Virus record (IMG/VR): IMGVR_UViG_3300049793_000099
Location: 1 to 64,000 of that record
Reading direction: 5' to 3' (one strand)
Origin: a virus
DNA length: 64,000 bases
Below, piece after piece: positions 11,348 to 62,600 of the stretch (position 1 is its first letter; each line of letters opens with the position of its first letter). The translations under genes were made by a program, and so were the position numbers. Under the pieces are notes generated by a model. That model saw only the letters and a list, made by a program, of their open reading frames with translations. It did no database searches and was not told where the DNA came from.

Positions 11348-11710
11348 GGGGGTGACAGGTATTGATACGTGCATAATAATTATATAATTCAGCAGAAATA
11401 GGTGAAAGTTCATTAAATTGAACATTGTTGAAATGACAAAAATCAAATAGTTGCCAATATGCAAGTAGTTCATAACATCTTAAACGGTGGAACTATTGAA
11501 GCTAAATCTGATATTATCTTAGATAAATTAGAATTAGCAGCATAATTAAATAGATTAGAGTAATCTAATCGAACTCAAACTATAGAGTAATTTAGTATTT
11601 CTCCACATTTAGTATTATTTAAGGGAGATTAAAGATTAAAATATACAATAAGCTGTATAAAATTATATATTAAAAGTAAAGTAGACCGGACTTCAATGTC
11701 CGCACCTCCA
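11348..11710 (+). ncRNA. ssrA: tmRNA (SsrA), 363 nt, CCA not encoded
   Basis: Acceptor GGGGGTG/CACCTCC-A with G3:U70, T-arm CGGAC/GTCCG, internal reading frame 11453-11545 ending LELAA-stop after an AAATAGTT-GCC resume context. Confidence 0.92.
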
Positions 11711-12200
11711 CTAACTAACTAATTATTAATTAGTTATAAAGAAAGCTGTTACTTGAGTTAGCACTAGGACAGTAACTATTATCAGAGGAAGCTAATCTCT
11801 TGGATAATCCTGCAGGTTGTGACCAGTACACATAAAAAGACTTCTACCAGTTAGAATAAGTATACACCGTTATGGTTAAGTTCTGACATTTTTTTAAATA
11901 AATAAAATCAAAAATAAAACAGTCCGTGTAAACTGTGAATAAATAATACTTAGTGCAAATGTCTAGCACCCTTATCAATAGATGTAACAATTATAAGCAT
12001 TTATAATCAAGTATTAGAGATGTTTCAGAAATGAATTATAACAAATCGAGAAATAGATTATAATGTAAGCATAAAACTTATAATTGGGGAAATATAAATT
12101 GACAACTTACAGTGTTATTTTATAAAAATTATAAATAAAAAATTAAATTCCAATTATTAATATGCGAAATAAAGTGTCCTTAAATGGTCAATAACTGAAT

Positions 12201-12303
12201 AATAATTATATAATGTTGCTAGGCTTGTAACCTAGAAATGGAGGTTTAAATCCTCGTGCTACAACTCAGAAATAGTGAGCATTAACATAATAATATAATT
12301 ATT
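12201..12303 (+). ncRNA. tRNA-Thr(UGU)-shaped element in permuted order
   Basis: CTAGG-CTTGTAA-CCTAG arm, GAGG-TTTAAAT-CCTC arm, closing stems. Confidence 0.4.
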
Positions 12304-14720: not shown

Positions 14721-14790
14721 AGAACGGAAGTGTATTGGTAGCACAGGTTAAATACTTAACAAAGTGGAAGGTCGATTCTTTCACGTTCTC
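14721..14790 (+). tRNA. tRNA-like element with collapsed anticodon loop (pseudo-tRNA)
   Basis: AGAACG/CGTTCT acceptor, GTGT-ATTGGTA-GCAC D-arm, GTTAA-ATAC-TTAAC (4-nt loop), GGAAG-GTCGATT-CTTTC T-arm. Confidence 0.6.
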
Positions 14791-25304: not shown

Positions 25305-26072
25305 ATGATAGATTTACCAACAAAACCTATTAAACCAGAACAAATAAATCCAAAAAGATTAATATTATTTGGAAATCCAAAATGTGGAAAAAGTGAAAGT
25401 CTTAGTCGACTTGAAAATAATTTAATATTAGATTTAGAAAGTGGTTCTGGTTTTATAACAGGTTTAAAAATAGATGTTTTAAAAATAGCATCTGATAATG
25501 AAATTACCCCTATTAATGCTTTAAAAACAGTAATAAATAAAATTAAAGAAGGTAATCAACAAAATAAAGGATTTTTATATAAATACATAACAGTGGATAC
25601 TGTGTCAATGTTAGAAGAAAAATATGCTTTAGAATTAGCTTTAAAATTGTATTTAAATACTACTGTAGGTAGAAATTTTCAAGGTACAGATGTGAGAACA
25701 TTACCTAATGGAGCGGGGTGGCAATATTTAAAAGATGCTGTACAAATTGTTTTAGATGAATTAGAAACTCTTTGTGAAACTTTAATTGTTTCGGGGCATA
25801 CGAAAGAAAAATTATACGAAAAAGATGGAAAAGAAGGTTCTGCAAGATGTTTGGATTTAGCAGGAAAATTACCTGCGATTTTATGCGCAAAAGCAGATGC
25901 AATTGCATTTATCTATCGTAAAGGAAATCAAACAATTGCAAACTTTAAATCATCAGAAGATCTTATAGTAGGTGCCAGACCAGAACATCTTAAAAATCAA
26001 GAAATTGTTTTATTAGAATCTGATGAAAATGGTAAATTTACATCACATTGGGATAAGATTTTTATTGAATAA
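25305..26072 (+). CDS. Sak4-like AAA ATPase (ssDNA annealing)
   Basis: GNPKCGKS, LDLESG, TVDT, GAGW, SGH, ADAIAF. Confidence 0.8.
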   Translation: MIDLPTKPIKPEQINPKRLILFGNPKCGKSESLSRLENNLILDLESGSGFITGLKIDVLKIASDNEITPINALKTVINKIKEGNQQNKGFLYKYITVDTVSMLEEKYALELALKLYLNTTVGRNFQGTDVRTLPNGAGWQYLKDAVQIVLDELETLCETLIVSGHTKEKLYEKDGKEGSARCLDLAGKLPAILCAKADAIAFIYRKGNQTIANFKSSEDLIVGARPEHLKNQEIVLLESDENGKFTSHWDKIFIE

Positions 26073-26168
26073 TAAAACTTTATTAAAAATTATAGAGTTT
26101 TATAAGTTTCTCTAATAAAAAACTTATAGCATATAAGCCAATAAATTAATAAATAAAAGAAAAAAAAG

Positions 26169-26723
26169 ATGTTCGATTTAAACGAGAAAGTAGCAGGGTC
26201 AAGTGTATTCAATAATGGAGTAGCAGGAAAAGCGATAGGAGTTAATGTAACTGTTGAGAAAAGAAAAGTGGATGAACCTGATAGTTATCCAGATTATAAA
26301 TTAGTAGTATCTGATGAATCAGGTGGTATGGCGATTAATCAAGGGTTTTATATTAATTCAGAAGATGATGAAAAACGTCAACAAATGACATATCAACGTG
26401 TTAAATCTATTGCAGATGCAGTAGTTCCTGAAGATTTTGTATATCCTGAAGTAAACGGATATATTGATGCCTTAAATACATTATTCAAAGTTATTAAAGA
26501 AAATGCAGATGGTAAAAAAGTAGATGTATTTGTATCTTATGGGTATGCTGCAAAACCATCTAAATACTTAGGTTTGAGAATGTTTAATTTCATTCAAAAA
26601 CAAAATACTAGTTTTGATAGATTGAAACCAAGTAATACAGATATTTTAGAACGTCCTGAAGCAGATATTCCAAAAGCAGATGGTCAAGGTACAGAAGTTA
26701 AAAAATCTGCTGATATTTGGTAA
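26169..26723 (+). CDS. Putative ssDNA-binding protein
   Basis: Between Sak4 and primase; flexible tail ending ADIW. Confidence 0.55.
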   Translation: MFDLNEKVAGSSVFNNGVAGKAIGVNVTVEKRKVDEPDSYPDYKLVVSDESGGMAINQGFYINSEDDEKRQQMTYQRVKSIADAVVPEDFVYPEVNGYIDALNTLFKVIKENADGKKVDVFVSYGYAAKPSKYLGLRMFNFIQKQNTSFDRLKPSNTDILERPEADIPKADGQGTEVKKSADIW

Positions 26724-26750
26724 TAATAAATTAGAGATTCAATCTCTGGT

Positions 26751-26922
26751 GGTTGAGTGACTGAAAGGGTAAGGTTAATCAGTAGAAGGAGAGCTTACAC
26801 GACAAGTGTTGTGGGAACTACTTAGGACAGTGTTGTAAGAATAGCCAATAAATAGGTATTAAAACGAGGCGTACATGTCACGCCTATCCTCTACAGTACA
26901 GGTTCGAATCCTGTCTCAACCT
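26751..26922 (+). ncRNA. tRNA body (Cys-like) with a ~120-nt domain replacing the anticodon arm
   Basis: Perfect GGTTGAG/CTCAACC acceptor, U73, ACAGG-TTCGAAT-CCTGT T-arm, TGACTGAAAGGGTAAGGT D-arm. Confidence 0.75.
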
Positions 26923-26953
26923 CAATATTAACTAAAATTAAAAAATTATAAAA

Positions 26954-27316
26954 ATGATAGATTTACAACAATTAGGTTTAGAAATAATTAAAAATAATAT
27001 ATCTCAAAAATGTAGAATTTCATTTAAAGATACTTGGTTTACATTTTATACAGATTGTTCAGGACAAAGAGGTCATTATGTAATGACTTATAAACCTTAC
27101 GATCATAAAATTATAGAAAATCATTATATTATAAAAAGACATTTATCCTTTACAAATGAAATAGATATTGGTAAAGACAAAGCTATATTAGGAATACTTA
27201 ATTTAGAAAAATGTAAAATTATTAATATACAGAAAGATAAAATAGAATTTGAAAATTTTATCTTTCATTTATATGATAATAATAGTACGCAAGAAATTAA
27301 TTTTGAATATATTTAA
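26954..27316 (+). CDS. Hypothetical protein
   Basis: ORF track. Confidence 0.55.
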   Translation: MIDLQQLGLEIIKNNISQKCRISFKDTWFTFYTDCSGQRGHYVMTYKPYDHKIIENHYIIKRHLSFTNEIDIGKDKAILGILNLEKCKIINIQKDKIEFENFIFHLYDNNSTQEINFEYI

Positions 27317-27328
27317 AAGTAAAAATAA

Positions 27329-28354
27329 ATGTTTAATCTAAATAAAGAAAAACAATTAATATCTAAATCTGAAATTTTAAAATATTTTAATGAATTAGAA
27401 ATATTTCAACATTATATAGACGATGAAGTAATGTTAAGTAAATTAATATTATCGCCTTTAAGAAAGGAAAATAAAGCTTCCTTTGGATTCTTTGTTGGAG
27501 AAGGTAATGAAATATGTTTTAATGATTTTAAGCTTGGAAAAGGTGATTTTATACAGTTTTTAAGATTAAGAGATGGTTTAACATATTTTGAAGCTTTAAG
27601 TAAAATTGCAAATGATTTTAATCTTCAAGATGATTATATTTGTAAAATATATCCTAAAAGTAGTGATAATACATCTAAAGTTAGAATTATTAAAGATGAT
27701 ATGTTATCTAAATATACAGGTTATTATTTAGGTAAAAAAGCTAGAGAATGGCAATCACACGATGTATTATTTTGGAGACAATTTGGCATTGGTAAAAAAA
27801 CATTAGAATTCTTTAATGTGCAACCAATAAGTTTTATATTTATTGGAAATAATTGTTTTCCTGCTGATAAATATGCATATTGTTTTATAGAAATGAAAGA
27901 TGGTTATGAAACATATAAGATTTATCAACCTTTTAGTGAAAATTATAAATGGATTAATAATCATAATAATTCTGTATGGCAAGGTTGGACACAATTACCT
28001 GAATCTGGAGATGATTTAATTATAACTAAATCACTAAAAGATGTAATGTGTTTGTATGAAGTTTTAAAATTACCATCAATTGCAATGCAATCTGAAAATG
28101 TATTACCAAAAAGACATATATTTCAACAATTGGAATCTAGATTTAAAAATATTGAATTATTATATGATAATGATTTTGATAAAAATCCTAATTGGGGAAG
28201 AATCTTTGCAGATAAATTTGCTAAAGAATATGGATTGATAGATAGTTTTATTCCAAATAAATATCAATCTAAAGATCCTTCAGATTTAGTGAAAAATTAT
28301 GGTAAAGAAAGAGCAGAGCATATATTATTATATGAAACATTGTTACCTTTTTAA
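27329..28354 (+). CDS. dnaG: DNA primase (crAss-type DnaG/Toprim)
   Basis: SPLR.E..ASF, KIYQPF, ITKSLKDVM, YDND, KDPSD. Confidence 0.9.
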   Translation: MFNLNKEKQLISKSEILKYFNELEIFQHYIDDEVMLSKLILSPLRKENKASFGFFVGEGNEICFNDFKLGKGDFIQFLRLRDGLTYFEALSKIANDFNLQDDYICKIYPKSSDNTSKVRIIKDDMLSKYTGYYLGKKAREWQSHDVLFWRQFGIGKKTLEFFNVQPISFIFIGNNCFPADKYAYCFIEMKDGYETYKIYQPFSENYKWINNHNNSVWQGWTQLPESGDDLIITKSLKDVMCLYEVLKLPSIAMQSENVLPKRHIFQQLESRFKNIELLYDNDFDKNPNWGRIFADKFAKEYGLIDSFIPNKYQSKDPSDLVKNYGKERAEHILLYETLLPF

Positions 28355-28369
28355 AAATATAAAAAAATT

Positions 28370-28675
28370 ATGAAAAATATAGAATTAACAAAAGATCACA
28401 AATGTAAATTATTAGAAATGTGTAAAGTATTGTTTCCTGAAATTGATTGGAAATGGTGGACTATTGAAGGACCAAATGGAGAAGTTGAAGAGTTAGAATT
28501 ATTAGAATGTTCTACAATAGAACAATTTTTAACAATTCATTGGTTTGAATTTTGTATGACACATTTAGCTAAAAAATTATTAAATCCGAATGATTTAATA
28601 TATTATCAAACAACAGGATATTTTTTATATGAACACCCAATAGATTATTTTTATGTAAAATTTAAACAAAAATGA
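28370..28675 (+). CDS. Hypothetical protein
   Basis: KLLEMCKVLFPE...IHWFEFCMTHL. Confidence 0.65.
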   Translation: MKNIELTKDHKCKLLEMCKVLFPEIDWKWWTIEGPNGEVEELELLECSTIEQFLTIHWFEFCMTHLAKKLLNPNDLIYYQTTGYFLYEHPIDYFYVKFKQK

Positions 28676-29190
28676 GAAAAGTTAATAAACAATCTGAAGG
28701 TTATCAAACAAGAGCTCAGAAAAAAAAAGAAAGAAAAGAACTTAGAAGAAAATCACAAATGGAAAAGAAAATTTTAATTGGGATATATGATGATTATAGA
28801 CACGAAGGTTGTTTAAATGGAATACTAAATAAAATAAGCTGTAAATTAATAGGAGCGTATTCTACAGAACCTATTTATATAATGTATGATTTAAATGATG
28901 AAGGTTTAAACTGCGCTGTTCAAATCAATGGAAATAATTCTATTAAAGTAGAAGTTTGGGAAGTAAATGAAATATTTTTAGACAGAATAGAAAGAAGTTA
29001 TAATTATTATTCAGATTTTGATGAATACCTACAAGATTATATAAAAGAAAAAACATTATCTCCATTTGGTGAAATTTCAATGTATTTTATAAATGAAATT
29101 AAACCTGAAGATAAAATTGTAATTAGTGGAGATTGGATTGAATATTTGAACTATAAAAAAGTAATGGGAAATAAATCGTTAACATTATAA
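28672..29190 (+). CDS. Divergent gamma-glutamylcyclotransferase (AIG2-like)
   Basis: Aligns by eye with the next gene (STEP.Y, NGN.SI..EV.EV, SGDW.EY), but YGSL is replaced by YDDY. Confidence 0.7.
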   Translation: MRKVNKQSEGYQTRAQKKKERKELRRKSQMEKKILIGIYDDYRHEGCLNGILNKISCKLIGAYSTEPIYIMYDLNDEGLNCAVQINGNNSIKVEVWEVNEIFLDRIERSYNYYSDFDEYLQDYIKEKTLSPFGEISMYFINEIKPEDKIVISGDWIEYLNYKKVMGNKSLTL

Positions 29191-29606
29191 TGGAAAAAAA
29201 TAAATATTTAGTTGGGGTATACGGAAGTCTTCGTAAAACAATGTCTAATCATCAATATTATTTATCAGATTCTGAGTATAAAGGTACATTTTCAACAGAA
29301 CCAGAATATACTTTACATTCCCTATCTGCTTATCCAGGTTTAAAATTAAATGGAAACACTTCTATTATAATGGAAGTTTATGAAGTAGGTGAAGATACTT
29401 TAAGAAGTTTAAATCATTTAGAAGGTTATGATCCTAGAAAAATATCAAATTTTTACGATAGAATTGAAATTGATACTCCTTGGGGTAAAGCTTTTACATA
29501 TATTTATATAAGTGAATTATCAAAAGACTCTATTGTAGAATCTGGTGATTGGTGTGAATATAAAAAAGAAGAATTAAATGAGTGGTCAAATGTTACAAAT
29601 AATTAA
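29190..29606 (+). CDS. Gamma-glutamylcyclotransferase (AIG2-like)
   Basis: VYGSLR, YPGL, EVYEV, LNHLEGY, SGDW. Confidence 0.9.
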   Translation: MEKNKYLVGVYGSLRKTMSNHQYYLSDSEYKGTFSTEPEYTLHSLSAYPGLKLNGNTSIIMEVYEVGEDTLRSLNHLEGYDPRKISNFYDRIEIDTPWGKAFTYIYISELSKDSIVESGDWCEYKKEELNEWSNVTNN

Positions 29607-29623
29607 AAATAATAATAAAAATA

Positions 29624-30331
29624 ATGAATAATATAAAAAAGATCGCCATTGTGGGACATTTCACAGGTGAAAATAGTTTTGGAATTTCTAAACCATATTT
29701 ATTCTTTTGGCAACAATTTGGAGAAGTTTCTTTAATTTCACCATTTGAAACACATGTAAGAGATGTGGACTTATTAGTAATGCCAGGTGGTCAAGATATA
29801 GATCCATGTCGATATTTATCATCAGATGAAGATACTCATATATTTACAGGTTCTCCTTGTATGCAAAAAGAAAGATTTGATAGATTTCTATTACCTAAGT
29901 ATATCGAAGCTAAAATTCCCATATTCGGAATTTGTCGTGGACATCAAAGTTTAGCTGTTTATTTTAAAGCTAAATTAGTTCAACATATGTATCATGAAAC
30001 CAATCCATCTAATGATGGAGTTAAAACAATGCATAAAGTTATTGCTCCTGATTTTATTAAATATACAATTCCTACAATGCACAATTATGTTGATTTTAAT
30101 TTTGATGTAAATAGTAGACATCATCAAGTAGTTATGAATTGTCCTGAAAATGCAACAGTGATTGGTAGATATAACGGTGAAGAAAAACAACATTGGGAAG
30201 AAGGTTGTATTGAAGCATTATCTTATTTTCCAAATTATCCTGCACATACAGTTCAGTGGCATCCAGAAGATAAACAAGATGATTTTAGTATTAGATTAAT
30301 TAATCATTTATTAAATTTAAACAATGAATAA
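29624..30331 (+). CDS. Class I glutamine amidotransferase / peptidase C26
   Basis: PGGQDIDP, GICRGHQ, VNSRHHQ, VQWHPE. Confidence 0.92.
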   Translation: MNNIKKIAIVGHFTGENSFGISKPYLFFWQQFGEVSLISPFETHVRDVDLLVMPGGQDIDPCRYLSSDEDTHIFTGSPCMQKERFDRFLLPKYIEAKIPIFGICRGHQSLAVYFKAKLVQHMYHETNPSNDGVKTMHKVIAPDFIKYTIPTMHNYVDFNFDVNSRHHQVVMNCPENATVIGRYNGEEKQHWEEGCIEALSYFPNYPAHTVQWHPEDKQDDFSIRLINHLLNLNNE

Positions 30332-30717
30332 TGGAAGAGATTTTAATAAATTTTGAAACAGCTAAATTAGCTAAAGAAAAAGGTTTTAATGAAAAAGTTT
30401 ATAGAGAATATGATAAATTTGGATATTTAAGATGTACTTCTAAATCAGCAAATGTTGTATTAGGTCCTTATGAAGAATTGTTAAAAAGTACAGAATATTC
30501 AGCATCAACTCAATCCTTATTACAAAAATGGTTGAGAGAAGTTCATAAAATACATATTGATATTAGAACTAATGGCGCAAGTGGAGGTTGTTACTTTTTC
30601 TATTTATTTCAAACTAAAGTTCCTTTTTATACTTTATTTATATCTGAAAAAAATTCCGATACTTATGAAGAAGCGTTAGAATATGCATTAAAAGAATCTT
30701 TAAAATTAATAAAATAA
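30331..30717 (+). CDS. Hypothetical protein of a common phage family, inserted in the cluster
   Basis: FETAKLAKEKGF, TQSLLQKWLRE, TYEEALE. Confidence 0.7.
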   Translation: MEEILINFETAKLAKEKGFNEKVYREYDKFGYLRCTSKSANVVLGPYEELLKSTEYSASTQSLLQKWLREVHKIHIDIRTNGASGGCYFFYLFQTKVPFYTLFISEKNSDTYEEALEYALKESLKLIK

Positions 30718-30718
30718 T

Positions 30719-31537
30719 ATGAATAAATTAAAAAAATATAAACTATATCGTCCTTTAATACTAAGTCGTCATGGAACACACTCTATTTTAAGGGCTAAAA
30801 ATCAAACACTTCCATTATTACCATTTAGATCTGTAATACGTCTTGGATCGACAACAGAGAATACAGATGATAGATTGGAAATTAATACAGTTCAGGCAGT
30901 TAAAAACTCAGCTTCTAAATTATTAATGAAACAAAAATTTACTGAAGCTGGTGTTAAAACTGCTAATTGGACTTGTTATGTAGATTATCAATTGTGGAAA
31001 GAATTTATAGGAGAAAATGAATACCCTGTAGTAGCAAAATCTCATTTTGGTTCAAGAGGTATGGGAAACACTAAATTTAATACTGAAGAAGAATTTTTAA
31101 CTTGGTTACCAAATAAAAATCTTAATAATTATATATTTGAAAAGTTTGTTAAAATGACTAGAGAATATAGATTACATATAACTAAATTTGGTTGTTTTTA
31201 TACTTGTAGAAAATTAGTTAAAAGTGATGCACCTGAAGATACTTGGCAAAAACACGATGATGTTTGTAATTGGGTATTAGAAGAAAATCCATCATTTAAG
31301 AAACCTAAAAATTGGAATGATATTGTAGCAGATTGTGTTAAAGCAAAAGAAGTTTTAGGGTTAGATATTTGCGCATTTGATGTAGGTGTTCAAGGTGCTA
31401 TAGATGGAGTTGAAAGAGAAAATCCAGAATGGGTTATATTTGAGTCATGTTCAGCACCAAGCTTCGGAAATGTTACAAGTCAAAAATATATAGAAATTTT
31501 ACCAAAATTATTAATAGATAAATATAATAATAAATGA
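30719..31537 (+). CDS. ATP-grasp ligase (RimK/phiEco32-like)
   Basis: YPVVAKSHFGSRGMG, EYRLH, LGLDICAFDV, FESCSAPS. Confidence 0.88.
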   Translation: MNKLKKYKLYRPLILSRHGTHSILRAKNQTLPLLPFRSVIRLGSTTENTDDRLEINTVQAVKNSASKLLMKQKFTEAGVKTANWTCYVDYQLWKEFIGENEYPVVAKSHFGSRGMGNTKFNTEEEFLTWLPNKNLNNYIFEKFVKMTREYRLHITKFGCFYTCRKLVKSDAPEDTWQKHDDVCNWVLEENPSFKKPKNWNDIVADCVKAKEVLGLDICAFDVGVQGAIDGVERENPEWVIFESCSAPSFGNVTSQKYIEILPKLLIDKYNNK

Positions 31538-32475
31538 ATCCAGAATTAATAGAAAAAATAAAATCATATCAATTAGATAAAGATACTTTAAAATCGACGA
31601 TTAAAGTATTTTTAAATGGTTATATATCTACAATATTGTATGCTGAAATTGAGGGTGAACAAATTGTAGAAAAAGTAGAAACAATTTACAATTATTTACA
31701 AAATATTATTAAAGAACCTGAAATAAAACAAACTTTAAATATCGTAATTGCAGACAATACTTCATCTTTAGACTATGTATCATATTTAAATCAAAAATAT
31801 GAAGTTACTGTTCATAAAACAGTAGATGTAAAAAATCCAAAAGATATTGATTTAGTATTGTTTACAGGTGGAGAAGATGTTAATCCCGCATATTATTGTG
31901 AAAATATTGGTAAATTTACAAGTATTAATAAATCTAGAGATGATAAAGAAATAGATACTTTTCATAAATTTAAAGGATATTCCTTTTTATTTGGTGTATG
32001 TCGAGGGTCACAATTATTGACAGTTTTAAGTGGAGGAAAATTAATCCAACACGTGGAAGGTCATTGTAAAGATCATTCAATGGTTTTAAATAATAGATCA
32101 AGTTATAACATAACATCATCACATCATCAAATGTTATATCCATTTGATCTAAATGAAAAAAATTATGAATTAATTGCTTATTCTGAATATTTTCAAAGTA
32201 AAACTTATCTTAATGGAGATAATGAGGAAATTGAATTACCAAAAAACTTTTTAGAACCTGAAATTATTTATTATAAAAGTACAAATGCTTTAGTAATTCA
32301 AGGACACCCTGAATGGAGTCATTGTGAAAAAAGAACCTCTTCGATGTGTTTAAATTTAATTGATAAATATTTAAAAGAATTTAAAAACAATAAAAAAACT
32401 ATCAATCCTCTTTATCATATTCCATCAAATATTAATGATTTAAAATATGGTGATAATTATTATGAAAAAAAATGA
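31534..32475 (+). CDS. Second class I glutamine amidotransferase with N-terminal extension
   Basis: FTGGEDVNP, GVCRGSQ, SSHHQM, QGHPE. Confidence 0.9.
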   Translation: MNPELIEKIKSYQLDKDTLKSTIKVFLNGYISTILYAEIEGEQIVEKVETIYNYLQNIIKEPEIKQTLNIVIADNTSSLDYVSYLNQKYEVTVHKTVDVKNPKDIDLVLFTGGEDVNPAYYCENIGKFTSINKSRDDKEIDTFHKFKGYSFLFGVCRGSQLLTVLSGGKLIQHVEGHCKDHSMVLNNRSSYNITSSHHQMLYPFDLNEKNYELIAYSEYFQSKTYLNGDNEEIELPKNFLEPEIIYYKSTNALVIQGHPEWSHCEKRTSSMCLNLIDKYLKEFKNNKKTINPLYHIPSNINDLKYGDNYYEKK

Positions 32476-32546
32476 AGAAGAATGGGGAGATGATTATAAT
32501 TGGGAAATCATTGAAAAAGAACCAGAACAAGTTTAATAAAAAAAAT

Positions 32547-33353
32547 ATGAAAATTAAAAATATCACTTTAGGTACAGATCCAGAATTATTTCTACAAAAA
32601 GATAATAAAATTATTTCAGCAATTGGTAAAATTGGGGGTTCTAAATCGGAACCCCAACCGATTTCAGAAGATGGTCATTTTATTCAAGAAGACAATGTTG
32701 CAATTGAATATAACATTCCACCTTGTAAAACACTTATTGACTGGATATATCATAATAATTTTGTTAAGGATTATTTAGAAGTATTAGTTTCAGGAATGGG
32801 TTGTACATTAGCAATTAATGCTTCTGCAATATTAGATGAATCTGAGTTAAACAATGATATTGCGCGTCTTGCAGGTTGTGAACCAGATTTTGATGTATGG
32901 AATGAATGTATTAATGAACCTGCAGATTTAAGTGCTACAAGTATGAGAAGTGCTGGAGGACATATTTCAATTGGTTGGGATGAACCTACACAAGATCAAC
33001 AAATTGATATGGTTAAAGCTATGGATGCTATAATTGGATTAGAATCTATATTATTAGATACCGATACAGAACGTAAAAAACTTTATGGTAAAGCAGGTTG
33101 TTTTAGATTTAGGGAGTATGGAATTGAATATAGAAGTTTATCAAATTTCTGGATTAAAACTGATGAATCTTTACAATGGGCTTGGAATACAACAATGAAA
33201 GCTATCGATTTAGTTAATTCTGGTAAAATTGAAAAAGTTAAAAAACACGGAAATAGAATTGTTGAAGCAATTAATACTAATAATAAAGATTTAGCATTAG
33301 AGTTATTAAATGAATTTTCAAAAATTCAAGAAAAAGAATTACAAATAAATTAA
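32547..33353 (+). CDS. phiEco32-like COOH-NH2 ligase type 2 (start revised to 32547)
   Basis: LGTDPELF, QEDNVAIEYN, GCEPD, RSAGGHI, YGKAG, EYRSLSNFW. Confidence 0.9.
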   Translation: MKIKNITLGTDPELFLQKDNKIISAIGKIGGSKSEPQPISEDGHFIQEDNVAIEYNIPPCKTLIDWIYHNNFVKDYLEVLVSGMGCTLAINASAILDESELNNDIARLAGCEPDFDVWNECINEPADLSATSMRSAGGHISIGWDEPTQDQQIDMVKAMDAIIGLESILLDTDTERKKLYGKAGCFRFREYGIEYRSLSNFWIKTDESLQWAWNTTMKAIDLVNSGKIEKVKKHGNRIVEAINTNNKDLALELLNEFSKIQEKELQIN

Positions 33354-33366
33354 AAAAATAAAACAT

Positions 33367-35217
33367 ATGTGTGGAATTTTTGGAATGTCTACAAATAAAC
33401 CTGAAAATTTAGATGTTAATGGTGTACATATTTTAGGTATTTATAATATAGAAAGAGGTAGAATGTCTTGTGGATTATCATGGGATGGTGATGTACAATA
33501 TGGACTTGGTTTTGATAAATTATATACAGATTTTATTGTAGATAGGGAAATTAAACCTATTAAAATACCTATTATGATTGGTCATACTAGACAACCTAGT
33601 TATGGTTTCGCAATTACAGAAGATAATGCTCATCCATTTGGATTTGGTACAAGTAAAAATAAGGAAGGATATGAGATGATTTTCTGTCATAATGGAACTT
33701 TAAAAAATCATAAAGAATTAGCTAAAAAATATAATATTGATTTAACTGAAAAAATTCAAAAATTATCGTACGATGGTCATTGTTATGAAACAACTCGTGA
33801 TAAAATTGATAGTGAAGTATTAGGTGAAATATTATATAAAACAAAAAAATTTCATGTTTTAAGTGAATATATTGGAGCTGCTGCTTTAGCTTGGACTTGG
33901 ATTGATGAACCAAATAAATTATATTTATGGTCAGGTGCTTCTAAAACAACACAAGGTTCTTTTACAGTTACAGAAGTAGAAGAAAGACCAATGAATGTTT
34001 ATTGTAAAAATGAAAACAGCATGTTCTTTTCATCTTTAAAAGATAGTTTGACTGTTTTAGGTGCATCAAAAAAAGATGATTTACAAATAGATTATAATAC
34101 TGTTTATATTATTACAGATGGTGATTTTGTAAGTGCTGAAAAACATAAAGTTAGTCGGCTGCAAGCAGGACAAAATGAAAATATCACGTATAATCAAAAA
34201 TATAGTAGATATGATTATGGAAATGAAAATTATTGTGATTGGGAAGATGTGAGATCTCAAAATTTAAATAAAATTTCAACTGATGTTAATACAGCAAAAA
34301 ATTCAATGATTAATTTACAAAATGATAAACTAATTCACCCTATTACATATTATAAAAATAAAGTTTATTGTAAAAGTTTAAGATATTGGGAAAATGATTC
34401 TCTTATAAATGGAGTTTATCTCTATATTAAAAATTGGGGTTTCAAGTTTGCAGGGATTGACACTTTTACAGCAAACGCTTATGTTAAAATTATAAAAGGT
34501 TTAGCTTTTGATTATAAAGAAGGAACTTTTAATTTTAATATGTCAAATAAAGAAGGTTTTATACCATTTGAAAAAGATGTTAAAAATATACAATTTCATT
34601 ATTTTACAGATGGTGTTTTATTAAAAACTTTAGAAGATTACAATAGATCTGTAATTTTAAATAAAGATTTAAAAAATTCTGTAAAATGTATTGATTATCA
34701 AATGTTATCTTATATTTCTAAACATCCTATAATTGATATAAATTCTACAAAAACACCTTCTGTTGCAATGTTTGATGGTAAATCTTTTACTGGAAATATA
34801 ACAGAACTAGGATTTGAAAAAATATATTATTTTAATAACGGCATATTTGTAAAATGGGTAAAAAGAGAAGACTTAATAACTAAAATTGAAACACCTGTTA
34901 TAATATTACCTAGTGTTATAGAGTCAAGTAAGTTTGATAAAGAATTAATTAATAATTCTATTAAATCTATTAAAGATTTTGAAAAAAATAATGAAAAAGT
35001 TTTTAATTCAGAAATAATTACTAAAGAATTAGAGGATGAAGTTTTTATTTCAGAGTTAATTTTAGAATGTTTTGAAAAACATGCTGAAGAAGTATCTGAA
35101 ACAATTATTGAACTTTCTGATTGGAAAGATAATGAAAATGTTAAAACCGCAATAAATACACTAAATCTAATAAATCATACTTTAAAAGATTTTGTCGAAA
35201 AACCTAATACAAAATAA
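33367..35217 (+). CDS. Class II (Ntn) glutamine amidotransferase with long C-terminal region
   Basis: MCGIFG, RG, GHTR, HPF, HNG, DSE. Confidence 0.9.
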   Translation: MCGIFGMSTNKPENLDVNGVHILGIYNIERGRMSCGLSWDGDVQYGLGFDKLYTDFIVDREIKPIKIPIMIGHTRQPSYGFAITEDNAHPFGFGTSKNKEGYEMIFCHNGTLKNHKELAKKYNIDLTEKIQKLSYDGHCYETTRDKIDSEVLGEILYKTKKFHVLSEYIGAAALAWTWIDEPNKLYLWSGASKTTQGSFTVTEVEERPMNVYCKNENSMFFSSLKDSLTVLGASKKDDLQIDYNTVYIITDGDFVSAEKHKVSRLQAGQNENITYNQKYSRYDYGNENYCDWEDVRSQNLNKISTDVNTAKNSMINLQNDKLIHPITYYKNKVYCKSLRYWENDSLINGVYLYIKNWGFKFAGIDTFTANAYVKIIKGLAFDYKEGTFNFNMSNKEGFIPFEKDVKNIQFHYFTDGVLLKTLEDYNRSVILNKDLKNSVKCIDYQMLSYISKHPIIDINSTKTPSVAMFDGKSFTGNITELGFEKIYYFNNGIFVKWVKREDLITKIETPVIILPSVIESSKFDKELINNSIKSIKDFEKNNEKVFNSEIITKELEDEVFISELILECFEKHAEEVSETIIELSDWKDNENVKTAINTLNLINHTLKDFVEKPNTK

Positions 35218-35219
35218 AA

Positions 35220-37013
35220 ATGAGTGCTGAAAAAAAAGTAATTACAATAAAAAGTGAGGAATTACCTATTTCTAAATGTAGAAAATTTAATACTCTTTAT
35301 TATAAAATAGGAGATATTAATATTAAAAATTCAGGGGATTGTTATCTAATTAATGGTAAATGTTATAGAGAAGAAACTGGTTTAATTGTTTATAATCATA
35401 GTATAAATAAATATGTTATTTTAGATAATACTTTAATTAGAGGTGTTGTTGATATACTAGAAGATGAATTAATTATAGGTTATTTTAATAATAATTTAAA
35501 ATATTCAAAAGTTATAGATAAAGAAGATAATTCTTTTTATTTATATAATTCAAAAATTTTTAAAAATAATAAAGAATATAGGGAAAAATTATCTAGTGGA
35601 GATTTTTATCACATATCAAAACTTTCCGCGTCTAAATTTAATATAATATATTTTCCAAATAAAGATTATAAACATAGTTTACCATATGACTCAAAGGGAA
35701 TTATCGAACATCATTTAAAAGGGTATAAAGAGTATAATCCTGAAATTTCAAACAATATTAAAAATTATGCACCTTTATTAGAAACTTTATCGTTTGGTTT
35801 AGAATTTGAAACATCAAAAGGTTTTATTCCAAATAGAATACTTGATCAATACGGATTAATTCCTTTAAGAGATGGTTCTATATCAGGTATTGAATATGTT
35901 ACTATCCCTATGGAAGGTGAAAAAGGTTTACAATGTACTGTAGATATTCTTAAGGTATTGAAAGAAAGAACTGAGTATGAGGATAATACTTGTTCATTGC
36001 ATTTACATTTAGGTAATATTCCAAGAACAAAAGAATTCATATTGGCATTTTTTAAAGTTGGTATGAAAATACAAGATGAAATGTTTCAAATGTTTCCTTT
36101 ATATAAAAAATATAATTATCATATTAAAAATAAAAATTATTCTGCACCATTACCAACATTTGAAATTTTATCTCAATTAGATCCTATTATCACTTCTGAT
36201 AATATTGATTTTAATTTTGGAATATTGTACAAATATTTATCTATGGGTCAAGATTTCAAATCTGTTGGTAATGATCTTAATAATGTTGTGGCACATCCAG
36301 CAGATCCTAATGGTAATCAAAAATGGTTAGTCAAATGTCGTTATTTTTTATATAATGTAGTTCCATTAATCTTTGGTAATAAACAAACTATAGAATTTAG
36401 AATTCACACTCCTACTTATGATATAAATAAAATATTACCTTTTATTTTCATGAATAGTTTGATAGTTAATTTTACGATAAAGCACCAAGAAAGAATTTTG
36501 AGAAACAAAGATTTTTTAAATCAATTTGATTTATTTGGTATTTTAAGTAATCAAACGGAAGAGTATGATATTTTATGTGGAAGTAAATTTAGAGATTTAA
36601 TGTATAATTATATTGAAAAAAGAAAAAATTATTGTGAAAGTCAAATATTAAAAGGTAATATTTTAGGTACTGAATCTGAAATACCTGCACCAATGGATAT
36701 TAATTGGATAAGTAATCAAGAAGAAAAAAAGAATTCTTTTTTTAAACAACACAGTCCAAAACCTTTACCAAAACTGAAAGTGCAAAATAATTACGATAAA
36801 GGTATGGACACTATAAGAAAACCTATAGTTGTTTCTGAACATCAAGAATTATATAATTGGGAGAATAATATAAAACCTATACTTTTTAATAATTCAAGTT
36901 TTAAAGATGCAACGGAAACCAAAATTAATGTAGGTATTAAATCTCAAATAGAAAAATTAGAACAATCTCTAATAGCAGAGTTTAAAACACAAGCCTATGA
37001 CCTCCCTTACTAA
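35220..37013 (+). CDS. Putative amidoligase (glutamine-synthetase-like fold)
   Basis: FGLEFET, RDGS, EYVT, CSLHLHLG, TIEFRIH. Confidence 0.85.
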   Translation: MSAEKKVITIKSEELPISKCRKFNTLYYKIGDINIKNSGDCYLINGKCYREETGLIVYNHSINKYVILDNTLIRGVVDILEDELIIGYFNNNLKYSKVIDKEDNSFYLYNSKIFKNNKEYREKLSSGDFYHISKLSASKFNIIYFPNKDYKHSLPYDSKGIIEHHLKGYKEYNPEISNNIKNYAPLLETLSFGLEFETSKGFIPNRILDQYGLIPLRDGSISGIEYVTIPMEGEKGLQCTVDILKVLKERTEYEDNTCSLHLHLGNIPRTKEFILAFFKVGMKIQDEMFQMFPLYKKYNYHIKNKNYSAPLPTFEILSQLDPIITSDNIDFNFGILYKYLSMGQDFKSVGNDLNNVVAHPADPNGNQKWLVKCRYFLYNVVPLIFGNKQTIEFRIHTPTYDINKILPFIFMNSLIVNFTIKHQERILRNKDFLNQFDLFGILSNQTEEYDILCGSKFRDLMYNYIEKRKNYCESQILKGNILGTESEIPAPMDINWISNQEEKKNSFFKQHSPKPLPKLKVQNNYDKGMDTIRKPIVVSEHQELYNWENNIKPILFNNSSFKDATETKINVGIKSQIEKLEQSLIAEFKTQAYDLPY

Positions 37014-59616: not shown

Positions 59617-62600
59617 TTATTTACATCTTTTTTCGTATTCTTGAGGATACATTTGTTTAAACATTTCAAAATCTCTTAATTCTTTTTCAGAAGTTAAATT
59701 ACCTTCTTGTTTCTTTTTAAACAAAACATCCATTCTTCTAAAGTCAGTTTGTCTTTGTTTAGGATTTCTTTTCTCATTAAAAACTCTATCTTGAGTTTCT
59801 TTTATCTCAAAATTTTCCACAGTTCCAGGTATTTCTGACAAAGATAAGAAATTTTCCTGAGAATTCCTAATATTATTTAATAAATTATTTATTTCTATAT
59901 CTAATCTATTAAAATTACGTTCTTTTTTAAAAAGTTCATTTAATCTATTTAATATATTTTCAGATGCTTTTTTAGATATACTATAAAAATTTTTTATTAA
60001 ATCCTGTTCTGATAATTTACCATCATTTATATCACTTCTTAAAATATAACGAGCTAATATCAAAACATTATTAGTAGTTAAATTATTTTTTAAATATTCA
60101 ACTTCTATTTTTGACGCTTTAAATTTTTCTTGAACATCCTTAATAATTTCTTGATTATTTCCAAATAAACTATCGAATCCAGTATTATCAATTTTAACCT
60201 CAACACCTGATTCCGAAACTTTAGGTTGATTAGTTACTGTAATACTTGTATTTAAATAAATATTAGTGTAACCTTGAAATGTTGGTTCATTAACTACTGC
60301 ATTAGTAGATAATATATTGTTATCAACTAAATATTTAAGATAATCTGCAGAATTAGATTTAAGATTAGTTTTAGTATTATCAATTTCAGATTTAGGATTA
60401 ATCTTAATCTGATGTCTTTTTTGATTAATTAAGAAATCTATAATTTCATTTTGATCTTGTTCAATTGTATCTATTGTAGATTCTTTATCACCATAATATA
60501 GAATTCCATTAACAATTTGCATTTGAGATTTAATATTTGCTGATTGATATATTAATAAATCAATAATTTCTTGAAGTTTAATATCATTTTTATTACCCCC
60601 AATAATATTTAATTCAGCTTCAAAATTAGTTGTAATAGTTTCTTTTAAATCATTATTAACTTCAGAAATAGTTGTATCTAGTGATTTCTCATTAGTTATA
60701 ATTTCTTTATAAATTTCATAAAGTAAAACTGCTTCACTTTCACTAATTTTTTTAATATTAAGTTTTAAAGGAAAAAGTTTACCATTAGTTTGAGGAATAG
60801 TTAAATATATCTCACCTGCTGCATTTGGCTTAATCTTATCGTTATTAAATTCAAATATTTTATCATTTAATATATTTTGTAATTTACCAAATGAATTTAT
60901 AACATAAATATTTTCTCTAATATAATTTAAATCTTTAATTCCATTTAATTGAAGAATATTATTATTAGCAAATCTATTGCTATCTACTTTTAACAATCCT
61001 TTATATTGATCTTGTATTGTAGTTTTAATATCATTAATAGATATACCTTTAATTAAATTATTAACAATTTCAATTCTTAATAATTCTGTAGCAATATTTA
61101 TATCATTTGTAATCCTTCTAGTTTCAATTGGAGCTTTAACCTCATTTGTAAATTGTACATTAATAGGTAAGAAATCTATTAATAATTTAGGATTAGAAAA
61201 ATCTTTATTGTTAAACGCATTTAAAGCTACTATTACTTTAGGATTTTTACCAGGATTTTGATTAATTTCAAATCCAACTTCTTTACCAGATTTATTAACA
61301 GGTTCTCTTTCATATTCTAAATACAAAGGAAATTGTTCTGATATAAAATTTAAAGGTAAACCTGTATTTCTATCTGTACTAATAACTTTAACACCTAATC
61401 CATAATCTACTTCGCTATTCTGAATACTTTTAAGCTCTTCTGAGGTGTTATTTTCATTCTCTTGAGGTATAAGTTCATCTGTAACAATTGATCCTTCTGT
61501 AGCTGTTAAACCATCATACGTTGTTACATTATTAAAATCACTATCTTCTTGAGTAGCATTAACTCTTTCTTCATTATTAATAACTTCTTCTTTAGCGATG
61601 ATTTCAACTTTTTTCTCATTAGCTTTTTGTTGAAGAACTTTATCTACATTAGTATTTGTTTTAGGTAAATTATCTAATTCATCAGTAGTTGTAGCATTAT
61701 TAATTACTTGTGAAATTTCTTCTGCTTTAGCTACTATTTCTGGAGAAGTTGCTTCTTGAAGTTTCTTTTTAGCTACAACTTCATTATTAATCTTATTATT
61801 TAACCATTCATTATCCCAAATAGTACTATTTGTAGCTTCTTCAAAATCTTTAAGTTGTTCTTCAACTTTAATAATTTGAGAATTAACTAGATTTAATCTA
61901 GGATTATTTGTTTTAGTTTTAATAGTTTTAAAAATATCTTCTGTTTTACCTTCAATATAATTAGGATTTATAATTTCAATAATTGATGAATTAGTTTCTA
62001 AATCAGCTCTTTGTTTCTGTAATTTTTGTAATTTATCCTTAGCATCAAATTCTTCAGCTCTGTCAGATATAAATGTAGAACCAACTCTATTCATAAAGTC
62101 AACAAGATGTTCTTCTGTAACTTCTGGATTATCAATTCTAATAATTGAAGCAGCCGTATCTTTATAAGAACTTAAATCCTTTTGAAGAGATGTTGCTTTT
62201 TTCATTATTTTATCAACTCTTTCAATATTTTCTTTATTGATTTTAACTTGTTCTTCTGAAATATCTTTTGAAGTTTCTGTTGGAAATGCTACTTTTAAAT
62301 ATTCATGTAATCCATCTAATGTAACTTGATCTTCACCTATAAACTTTTGAATAAGATTGAACTCTGCTTGACCTTTTAAGTATTCAATAGTATTAGTATC
62401 ACTTTCTTGAATAGCTTTATCATAAATTTGAGAATGTTGTTCAGTTAAATCTAAAGCATTTTTAACTTTAACAACAGCTTCAGGAATAAATACTTTTTTA
62501 CCATTAACTAATTTATCTCTAGTTGAAACTTCACCAGTTTCAGGATTAGTATATTCCTCTTGTTTGTAAAGATTTGTTTTAACTACATCTTGATAAGCAG

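Follow-up and report, generated by a model that had tools for sequence, protein, structure and literature searches.

An anticodon-less tRNA-shaped element occupies an exchangeable slot upstream of the primase gene in aquatic crAss-like phages

What kind of RNA is specified by a phage sequence that keeps the acceptor stem, D arm and T arm of a tRNA and has no anticodon arm? The question is raised by a short element in the first 64 kb (hereafter the window) of a virus record that is 96.9 kb long, bears direct terminal repeats and has a G+C content of about 24%. The element belongs to a crAss-like phage that infects aquatic Bacteroidota. This phage shares 40% primase identity with Cellulophaga phage phi14:2 (Crassvirales), its remaining matches are crAss-like phages of Bacteroides and Flavobacterium, and it matches the gene order of phi14:2 (Sak4-like, hypothetical, primase, GGCT/amidoligase cluster). 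The syntenic region before the phi14:2 primase lacks the RNA element, and a distant-mode search of INPHARED phages with positions 26000-27400 returned no match. The element begins 27 nt past the stop codon of a 184-aa ORF, which has no PHROG or Pfam match, and ends 31 nt short of the next ATG, with element and surrounding genes all on the plus strand. Farther along, window 28672-37013 (+) carries two gamma-glutamyl cyclotransferase-like genes, a glutamine amidotransferase and then ligase/amidoligase-type genes, a cluster syntenic with phi14:2 g037-g041.

A prediction made earlier from the letters alone (the original prediction) had listed an acceptor stem, a T arm, a closing helix, a hairpin, repeats and an open frame, all of which lie where it had placed them (Table 1). 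The acceptor stem GGTTGAG/CTCAACC comprises 7 bp, all paired, with U73 as discriminator, and the D arm has a 3-bp stem and a 10-nt loop with GGG. The anticodon arm is absent between the D and T arms, its place being taken by an 8-bp bulged closing helix, GTAG(A)-A-(A)GGA paired with TCC(T)-CTAC, together with three hairpins; two TGTTGT-containing repeats and the open frame (26782-26838) are confirmed in this insert. No CCA is encoded, since CAA directly follows T26922, and an encoded CCA is also absent from six of seven sampled Bacteroidota tRNA genes. The element folds somewhat better than shuffled sequences (z -2.2 for the whole, -2.3 for the insert alone), and when all 96.9 kb of the genome were scanned for a 7-bp acceptor combined with a T arm, it was the sole G+C-containing match. 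The upstream stem-loop ends 3 nt (GGT) before the first RNA base and is kept in most alleles; in more distant relatives (L015-L017), a hairpin followed by a T run sits at the same place and is read as a terminator, by eye rather than from a terminator scan. The sequence of the conserved trailer behind the element occurs once in the window.

Table 1. Features of the tRNA-shaped element and its flanks (window coordinates).
Feature	Position	Strand	Basis or remark
Upstream 184-aa ORF, ends ...ADIW*	26169-26723	+	left flank of slot
Stem-loop AGAGA-TTCAA-TCTCT, 5 bp, without U tract	26733-26747	+	
tRNA-shaped RNA element	26751-26922	+	172 nt
Acceptor stem 5' strand GGTTGAG, T at -1	26751-26757	+	identical in 20/21 alleles
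U8, G9 and D arm ACT / GAAAGGGTAA / GGT, GG elbow	26758-26775 (D arm 26760-26775)	+	
Closing helix 5' strand, bulged A	26782-26790	+	fold
Cargo core, hairpins A-C and conserved single-stranded linkers	26791-26886	+	fold, L236 comparison
Hairpin A of cargo	26794-26839	+	fold
Hairpin B of cargo	26844-26857	+	fold
Hairpin C of cargo, AGGCGT/ACGCCT, 6-bp stem, 7-nt loop ACATGTC	26867-26885	+	fold
Closing helix 3' strand	26887-26894	+	fold
T arm ACAGG-TTCGAAT-CCTGT	26898-26914	+	sole partial Rfam tRNA match (14 bits)
Acceptor stem 3' strand CTCAACC (26915-26921) and discriminator T26922	26915-26922	+	
Conserved trailer CAATATTAACTAAAATTAAAAA..., reaches the next ORF's ATG	26923-26953	+	right border of slot
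First variable small ORF between RNA and primase	26954-27316	+	
Primase gene	27329-28354	+	

Aquatic crAss-like phages of one clade have an exchangeable RNA slot between the 184-aa ORF and primase, and the element is one of its alleles. Among same-clade contigs (primase 82-94% identical) and metagenome contigs, 21 distinct sequences occupy the slot, with lengths of 56, 62, 69, 72, 73, 74, 87, 95, 97, 105, 110, 122, 130, 139, 172 and 188 nt; several of them were found on independent contigs and are therefore not assembly artefacts. Over the 400 nt 5' of the element, clade members share 91-96% identity, and the variable segment starts directly after GGTTGAGT. Allele interiors are unalignable, their identity of 10-58% (over the longer sequence) being at chance level. 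The acceptor 3' strand and the trailer form a conserved 35-nt island, behind which ORF content varies again. The small ORFs between the RNA slot and the primase differ by phage (window 26954-27316; L002-L014) and include several unrelated first ORFs, and this slot-to-primase stretch is an accessory-gene hotspot that starts inside the RNA gene. The 56-nt allele (L004/L005) consists of acceptor, D and T arms only and has no cargo. Some alleles score as tRNA in Rfam (56.6 bits for L014, about 46 bits for L009 and L003), with anticodon loops that are mostly odd (G33 or 8 nt); because they still do so, the slot was probably founded by a true tRNA gene. The D arms of the alleles are typical of several different tRNA classes, and that of the window element is homologous in L082 and in a distant relative, L236, described below.

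Within one lineage (188/139 nt), L007 and L132 share 96% identity, and L011 is a shorter form related to both; all three keep a D-loop hairpin insertion, in which one U:G pair has become U:A. The point-mutation rate within the insert looks similar to that of the flanks, so the diversity appears to arise from replacement and large indels, not from hypermutation. Allele interiors have 33-44% G+C against 24% for the genome, and most of those other than the window's fold no better than shuffles (mean z -0.4). When all interiors were compared by BLAST with every collected locus, self matches and known allele pairs were the only results. L007, L008 and the window cargo, searched against the whole records of five relatives, recovered the T arm and acceptor 3' end only, apart from one further chance AT-rich match inside an ORF. 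The pattern GGTTGAGTGACTGAAA, sought in viral contigs, occurs in the clade allele L082 and otherwise in chance matches only.

The frame that surrounds these interiors is clearly under structural selection. The acceptor stem together with U73 is identical in all alleles except L003, which has a wholly different acceptor; every allele has T at position -1; all T loops fit TTCRANY without exception; and 104 of the 105 T-stem pairs in the 21 alleles are standard. A T-arm covariation alignment was made from 19 alleles and L236 (20 sequences); 98.8% of its T-stem cells pair, and both sides have changed in four of the five pairs. Double-changed cells number 19, compared with 5.1 in shuffles, 0/500 of which reach 19, and slid controls of the same alignment are 38-51% paired. 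The claim that intact arms imply selection is thus supported by T-stem covariation and by recurrence of the frame in 20 further alleles, and the suggested check by homologue covariation gave a positive answer both across alleles and in L236, whose helices have changed with pairing kept. The constancy of the acceptor sequence throughout the clade is a separate matter, for which a purely structural chassis does not account.

Evidence on the cargo comes from a homologue outside the clade. A 17-mer from hairpin C led to contig IMGVR_UViG_3300025162_000050 (L236), which is crAss-like but distant, with a primase 43% identical and other neighbouring genes; L236:10285-10456(-) is a 172-nt full-length homologue of the window RNA that aligns from end to end. 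A search with a cargo 18-mer, ACACGACAAGTGTTGTGG, had L236 as its sole match, and one with a 19-mer, GTTGTGGGAACTACTTAGG, had none. The cargo core is about 93% identical between the two (7 edits in 96 nt, by manual count with two indels placed), the linker is identical at 5/5 positions and the T loop at 6/7. The helices of the frame have diverged and kept their pairing, with 50% identity in the acceptor strands, 20% in the T-stem strands and 40-56% in the closing helix. The L236 acceptor is UGUUAUU/AAUAACA (U1:A72, AU-rich) with discriminator C73 in place of U73, the D-stem pair U12:G23 of the window is G:C there, and the two closing helices, both bulged, read AGAUUAA-A-GA / UC-UUAAUCU in L236 and GUAG-A-AGGA / UCCU-CUAC in the window. 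RNAalifold on the two sequences gives three compensatory T-stem pairs, while the outermost pair, 49:65, would be an A·C mismatch. The same three-hairpin layout is predicted for both RNAs, and the fold, rich in G:U pairs, is thereby specific to the plus strand.

Since the cargo is kept in a distant phage and the frame helices have diverged with pairing, both frame and cargo appear to be under selection. In this comparison of two sequences, a conserved core amid diverged helices is a strong hint of long-term selection on the RNA, which is a simpler reading than recent transfer; with one cargo homologue, recent transfer of the core may nevertheless have occurred instead of purifying selection. 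The original prediction had stated that an insert unconserved among relatives would count against it, and the outcome is divided: the insert is replaced in the closest relatives at this locus and conserved in the distant one. On the same distant contig, positions 61015-61088 (minus strand; L239) form a 74-nt tRNA-like gene (34.5 bits) with a different acceptor, with an ORF ending ...NFWNN* on one side and the primase gene on the other, and the L236 cargo homologue lies about 7 kb from this L239 slot. With a tRNA-like gene at that place, the slot upstream of the primase is older than the clade.

Several other identities for the element were weighed. The alleles with high tRNA scores (L014, L009 and L003) could indicate that a tRNA gene is decaying into a pseudogene or contains an intron to be excised, a reading that is very improbable: decay would have abolished the stem pairing and compensatory changes seen in the T stem, and the insert falls short of group I intron length, matches no Rfam intron family and, when removed, leaves no anticodon arm. 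ARAGORN (with and without intron options, and at lowered thresholds) and Rfam, run on the window and on the whole 96.9-kb genome, detected no tRNA or tmRNA at the element; an ARAGORN 'tRNA-Pro' call was rejected as spurious, having joined the real T arm to a false upstream 5' half. Rfam searches at the gathering threshold and at E<=10 recovered the T arm only, at 14 bits compared with the RF00005 threshold of 29. The element has the 7-bp acceptor, the 5-bp T stem with TTCRANY loop and the D arm with G18G19 of RF00005, and lacks its anticodon arm (5-bp stem, 7-nt loop, U33, purine 37) and gathering score; the sole 7-nt loop, ACATGTC of hairpin C, is without U33 and R37. A brute-force scan of single excisions with spliced lengths of 68-95 nt yielded 1,050 products with nine poor calls, none with a canonical anticodon loop. 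The original prediction was accordingly right that this is a tRNA-derived RNA unable to decode, with neither an intron-containing tRNA nor a restorable anticodon. Elsewhere in the window, 12196-12264 (+) resembles a tRNA weakly (22.5 bits, E 0.32); its anticodon loop reads CUUGUAA and its acceptor stem is mismatched. ARAGORN called no tRNA gene anywhere in the 96.9-kb genome. The original prediction had also considered a mini-tmRNA or a dedicated aminoacyl carrier, whose charged top half would deliver a tag or an amino acid. Such a role, which we regard as highly doubtful, would fit the intact acceptor, T arm and elbow, the presence of U73 and the location near the amidoligase gene cluster. 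The combination of U73 with the window acceptor is known in some bacterial tRNA-Cys, and the predicted U73 is indeed present, but the 'Cys-type' label given to the D arm was not confirmed as specific: among host tRNAs, the same acceptor occurs in Ser, Leu, Phe, Cys and others from many phyla, so that no single origin or identity can be inferred. The different acceptor stem and C73 of the L236 homologue, which leave no conserved acceptor identity set, and the D arms of several tRNA classes among the alleles further argue against a carrier. As to a tag template, position 3:70 is U:A rather than the G3:U70 alanine identity pair of RF00023, and a conserved tag frame with stop is lacking. Frame 26782-26838 lacks the context of a start or resume codon and in L236 meets a TAA at codon 2 and frame-breaking indels; it is chance, as the earlier caution had allowed. 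Neither the Rfam tmRNA model nor ARAGORN -m detected a tmRNA in the element, and a separate tmRNA homologue is present at window 11377-11711 (+). Over 360 nt, this stretch has 69% identity to L083:6994-7375(-), a sequence that Rfam scores as tmRNA (RF00023, 56 bits); the window copy lies below every Rfam and ARAGORN threshold and may be a divergent or degenerate phage tmRNA. The element is thus no decoder, no spliced precursor of a tRNA and no tmRNA.

The main rival is of another kind, namely that the element is only a processing signal similar to t-elements and mascRNA, at which RNase P and RNase Z cut a polycistronic transcript so as to separate the 184-aa ORF from the accessory genes, with the insert as tolerated filler. 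The 56-nt allele, which retains just the three arms, would suit such a role, and on this evidence the frame alone may carry the selected function; most interiors are no more stable than shuffles and share no common sequence. The U-tract-less hairpin 3 nt upstream and the terminator-like hairpin with T run at the same place in L015-L017 point in the same direction, as does a second anticodon-less element (14721-14790), also directly upstream of a conserved downstream RNA, and there is a precedent in the t-elements that form mRNA ends (PMC1920247). We nonetheless consider it unlikely, because filler would hardly retain a core about 93% conserved in a distant phage while the helices of the frame diverged with compensation, and the G+C content of the interiors shows that they are not decaying towards the genomic background. 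Filler would moreover drift by point mutation, whereas wholesale replacement is seen between genomes 93% identical, and the 188/139-nt lineage keeps its D-loop hairpin with the U:G to U:A change. The allelic pattern can also be approached from the DNA: the tRNA ends may serve mainly as crossover points for the exchange of cassettes (RNA middles and small ORFs) between co-infecting phages, with the RNA being secondary. Variability that begins after the left-hand border sequence and resumes beyond the 35-nt island with differing ORFs, an acceptor sequence that is invariant and not covarying within the clade, and the swap of a whole tRNA in L003, acceptor included, are all what such exchange would produce. 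T-stem covariation, the T- and D-loop consensus and the strand-specific G:U pairs, however, indicate selection on an RNA fold, and short conserved flanks would suffice for recombination without any tRNA shape. As a principal explanation it therefore seems quite improbable, but it can also be true together with the one preferred here.

The preferred explanation, to which we give somewhat better than an even chance, is a strand-specific, anticodon-less, tRNA-shaped RNA gene in which a constant chassis holds a swappable three-hairpin cargo of about 96 nt, and whose product would be processed like a tRNA and stable. The chassis would consist of the acceptor stem, the D arm with elbow and the T arm, with the cargo replacing the anticodon arm. 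The acceptor/T-stem stack, the elbow, the T at -1 and the lack of an encoded CCA are parts that RNase P, RNase Z and the CCA-adding enzyme recognise, and because the parts kept are those recognised by the enzymes of tRNA maturation, we infer that the frame serves as a chassis for processing and stability. The RNA would be transcribed together with the neighbouring plus-strand genes; host RNase P would cut at G26751, and RNase Z cleavage and CCA addition would take place after T26922. The result would be a stable small RNA whose cargo domain does a specific job, probably binding a factor from the host or the phage as an accessory or conflict function. Such a role is suggested by the pattern of allelic replacement beside small ORFs that vary in a similar way. 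A search for antisense targets in the phage's own genome found a longest complementarity of 12-13 nt, within the shuffle range. As a by-product of processing, the upstream mRNA would end in a hairpin and the downstream mRNA would gain a defined 5' end.

Related structures were observed at other places. In the second anticodon-less tRNA-like element of the window (14721-14790, plus strand), the acceptor AGAACG/CGTTCT comprises 6 bp, the D arm reads GTG-TATTGGTAG-CAC and the T arm GGAAG-GTCGATT-CTTTC, and a hairpin with 5 bp and a 4-nt loop stands where a tRNA has its anticodon arm. Behind the element come a conserved CAAACTATGTTTCATAAT... stretch and a terminator, the conserved sequence reaching to about 14870. 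In relatives, its slot holds other tRNA or tRNA-like sequences, among them L227 with compensatory changes in all helices and L226 with a canonical-looking loop, TTTTCGA. Two Pirellula MAG contigs (L187 and L189) contain 93-nt variants of a 76-nt Planctomycetota tRNA, with a 17-nt insertion beside the anticodon region; the 76-nt form, called Leu(gag) by ARAGORN, was seen among the host tRNAs that share the acceptor.

Several known tRNA-like systems resemble the element in part. In the tRNA-like domain of tmRNA (RF00023), the top half of a tRNA is likewise retained and the anticodon arm replaced by a large domain; unlike tmRNA, the element lacks both G3:U70 and a conserved tag frame; no pseudoknot ring was detected in it, it is 172 nt long as opposed to more than 230 nt, and it fails tmRNA detection. 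The mascRNA of MALAT1 is a non-decoding tRNA-like module, at which RNase P and RNase Z make the transcript ends. Plant mitochondrial t-elements are tRNA-like, non-decoding and form mRNA ends (PMC1920247). The element resembles both in its non-decoding tRNA-like fold at a transcript border, but these are not known to carry a large conserved insert, whereas the insert of the element is conserved across distant phages.

The closest likeness is to small stable RNAs of phages T4 and T5. In the T5 record (NC_005859), RNA1 (misc_RNA 30501-30644, 144 nt) and RNA2 (32959-33083, 125 nt) are annotated as 'tRNA-like stable RNA with unknown functions'. Like the element, they have an acceptor-like stem, a D arm and a canonical T arm, with non-tRNA hairpins for the anticodon arm. 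The T arm of RNA2 shares 18 identical bases with the element, with no similarity outside the T arm, and the T5 RNAs lie within a large tRNA gene cluster, in contrast to an element from a genome without a callable tRNA gene. In T4, species 1 matures through the tRNA pathway, and its gene rnaC resembles the element in that a canonical T arm adjoins the terminal stem and the large domain at the centre has no relation to tRNA. Species 1 and 2 (rnaC and rnaD) are small stable phage RNAs, a stability that the element would share. Beyond an 11-nt T-arm match, they have no homology to it, and they belong to the T4 tRNA cluster and an Escherichia host, as against a location between the 184-aa ORF and primase in a phage of Bacteroidota. 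According to PMC3014915 and PMC9697503, no role is known for the species 1 and 2 RNAs. The element fits the layout of this class, being phage-encoded, with acceptor, D and T arms, a non-tRNA domain and a length within 100-190 nt, but has neither the sequence homology nor the tRNA-cluster location. What these sequences support is hence a likeness of architecture rather than demonstrated homology. The original prediction of a new class was partly right, although the architecture itself already exists in T5 RNA1/RNA2 and T4 species 1. Literature searches for anticodon-less tRNA-like RNAs in crAss-like phages found nothing, and in the literature on T5 no description of allelic replacement at a fixed slot was found.

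To our knowledge, the 'tRNA-like stable RNAs' of T4 and T5 have been without a function for about 50 years. The present locus could make the function of such RNAs testable, because the frame is selected and the middle is replaced between sister phages, and one middle conserved in a distant phage despite a diverged frame suggests that cargoes are functional units. If so, the 21 alleles in near-identical genomes would form a natural series for learning cargo roles; it includes an 'empty' 56-nt frame and would suit allele swaps and the correlation of cargoes with hosts or defence systems. The T4/T5-type RNAs would thereby be extended to Crassvirales and to non-leucine-like frames. By analogy, it is possible, though we rate it somewhat below an even chance, that in Crassvirales, and by architecture in T4 and T5 as well, the tRNA shape acts as an expression and stability chassis for exchangeable RNA cargoes, which phages would exchange at fixed slots much as they do accessory genes, and whose role would lie in taking over the host or countering its defences. 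A man-made parallel exists in the engineered tRNA scaffold of Ponchon and Dardel from 2007, in which a cargo RNA reportedly takes the place of the anticodon arm and is processed and stabilised as a tRNA. The element is alike in design, and if the processing model holds, it would be the natural counterpart of that scaffold.
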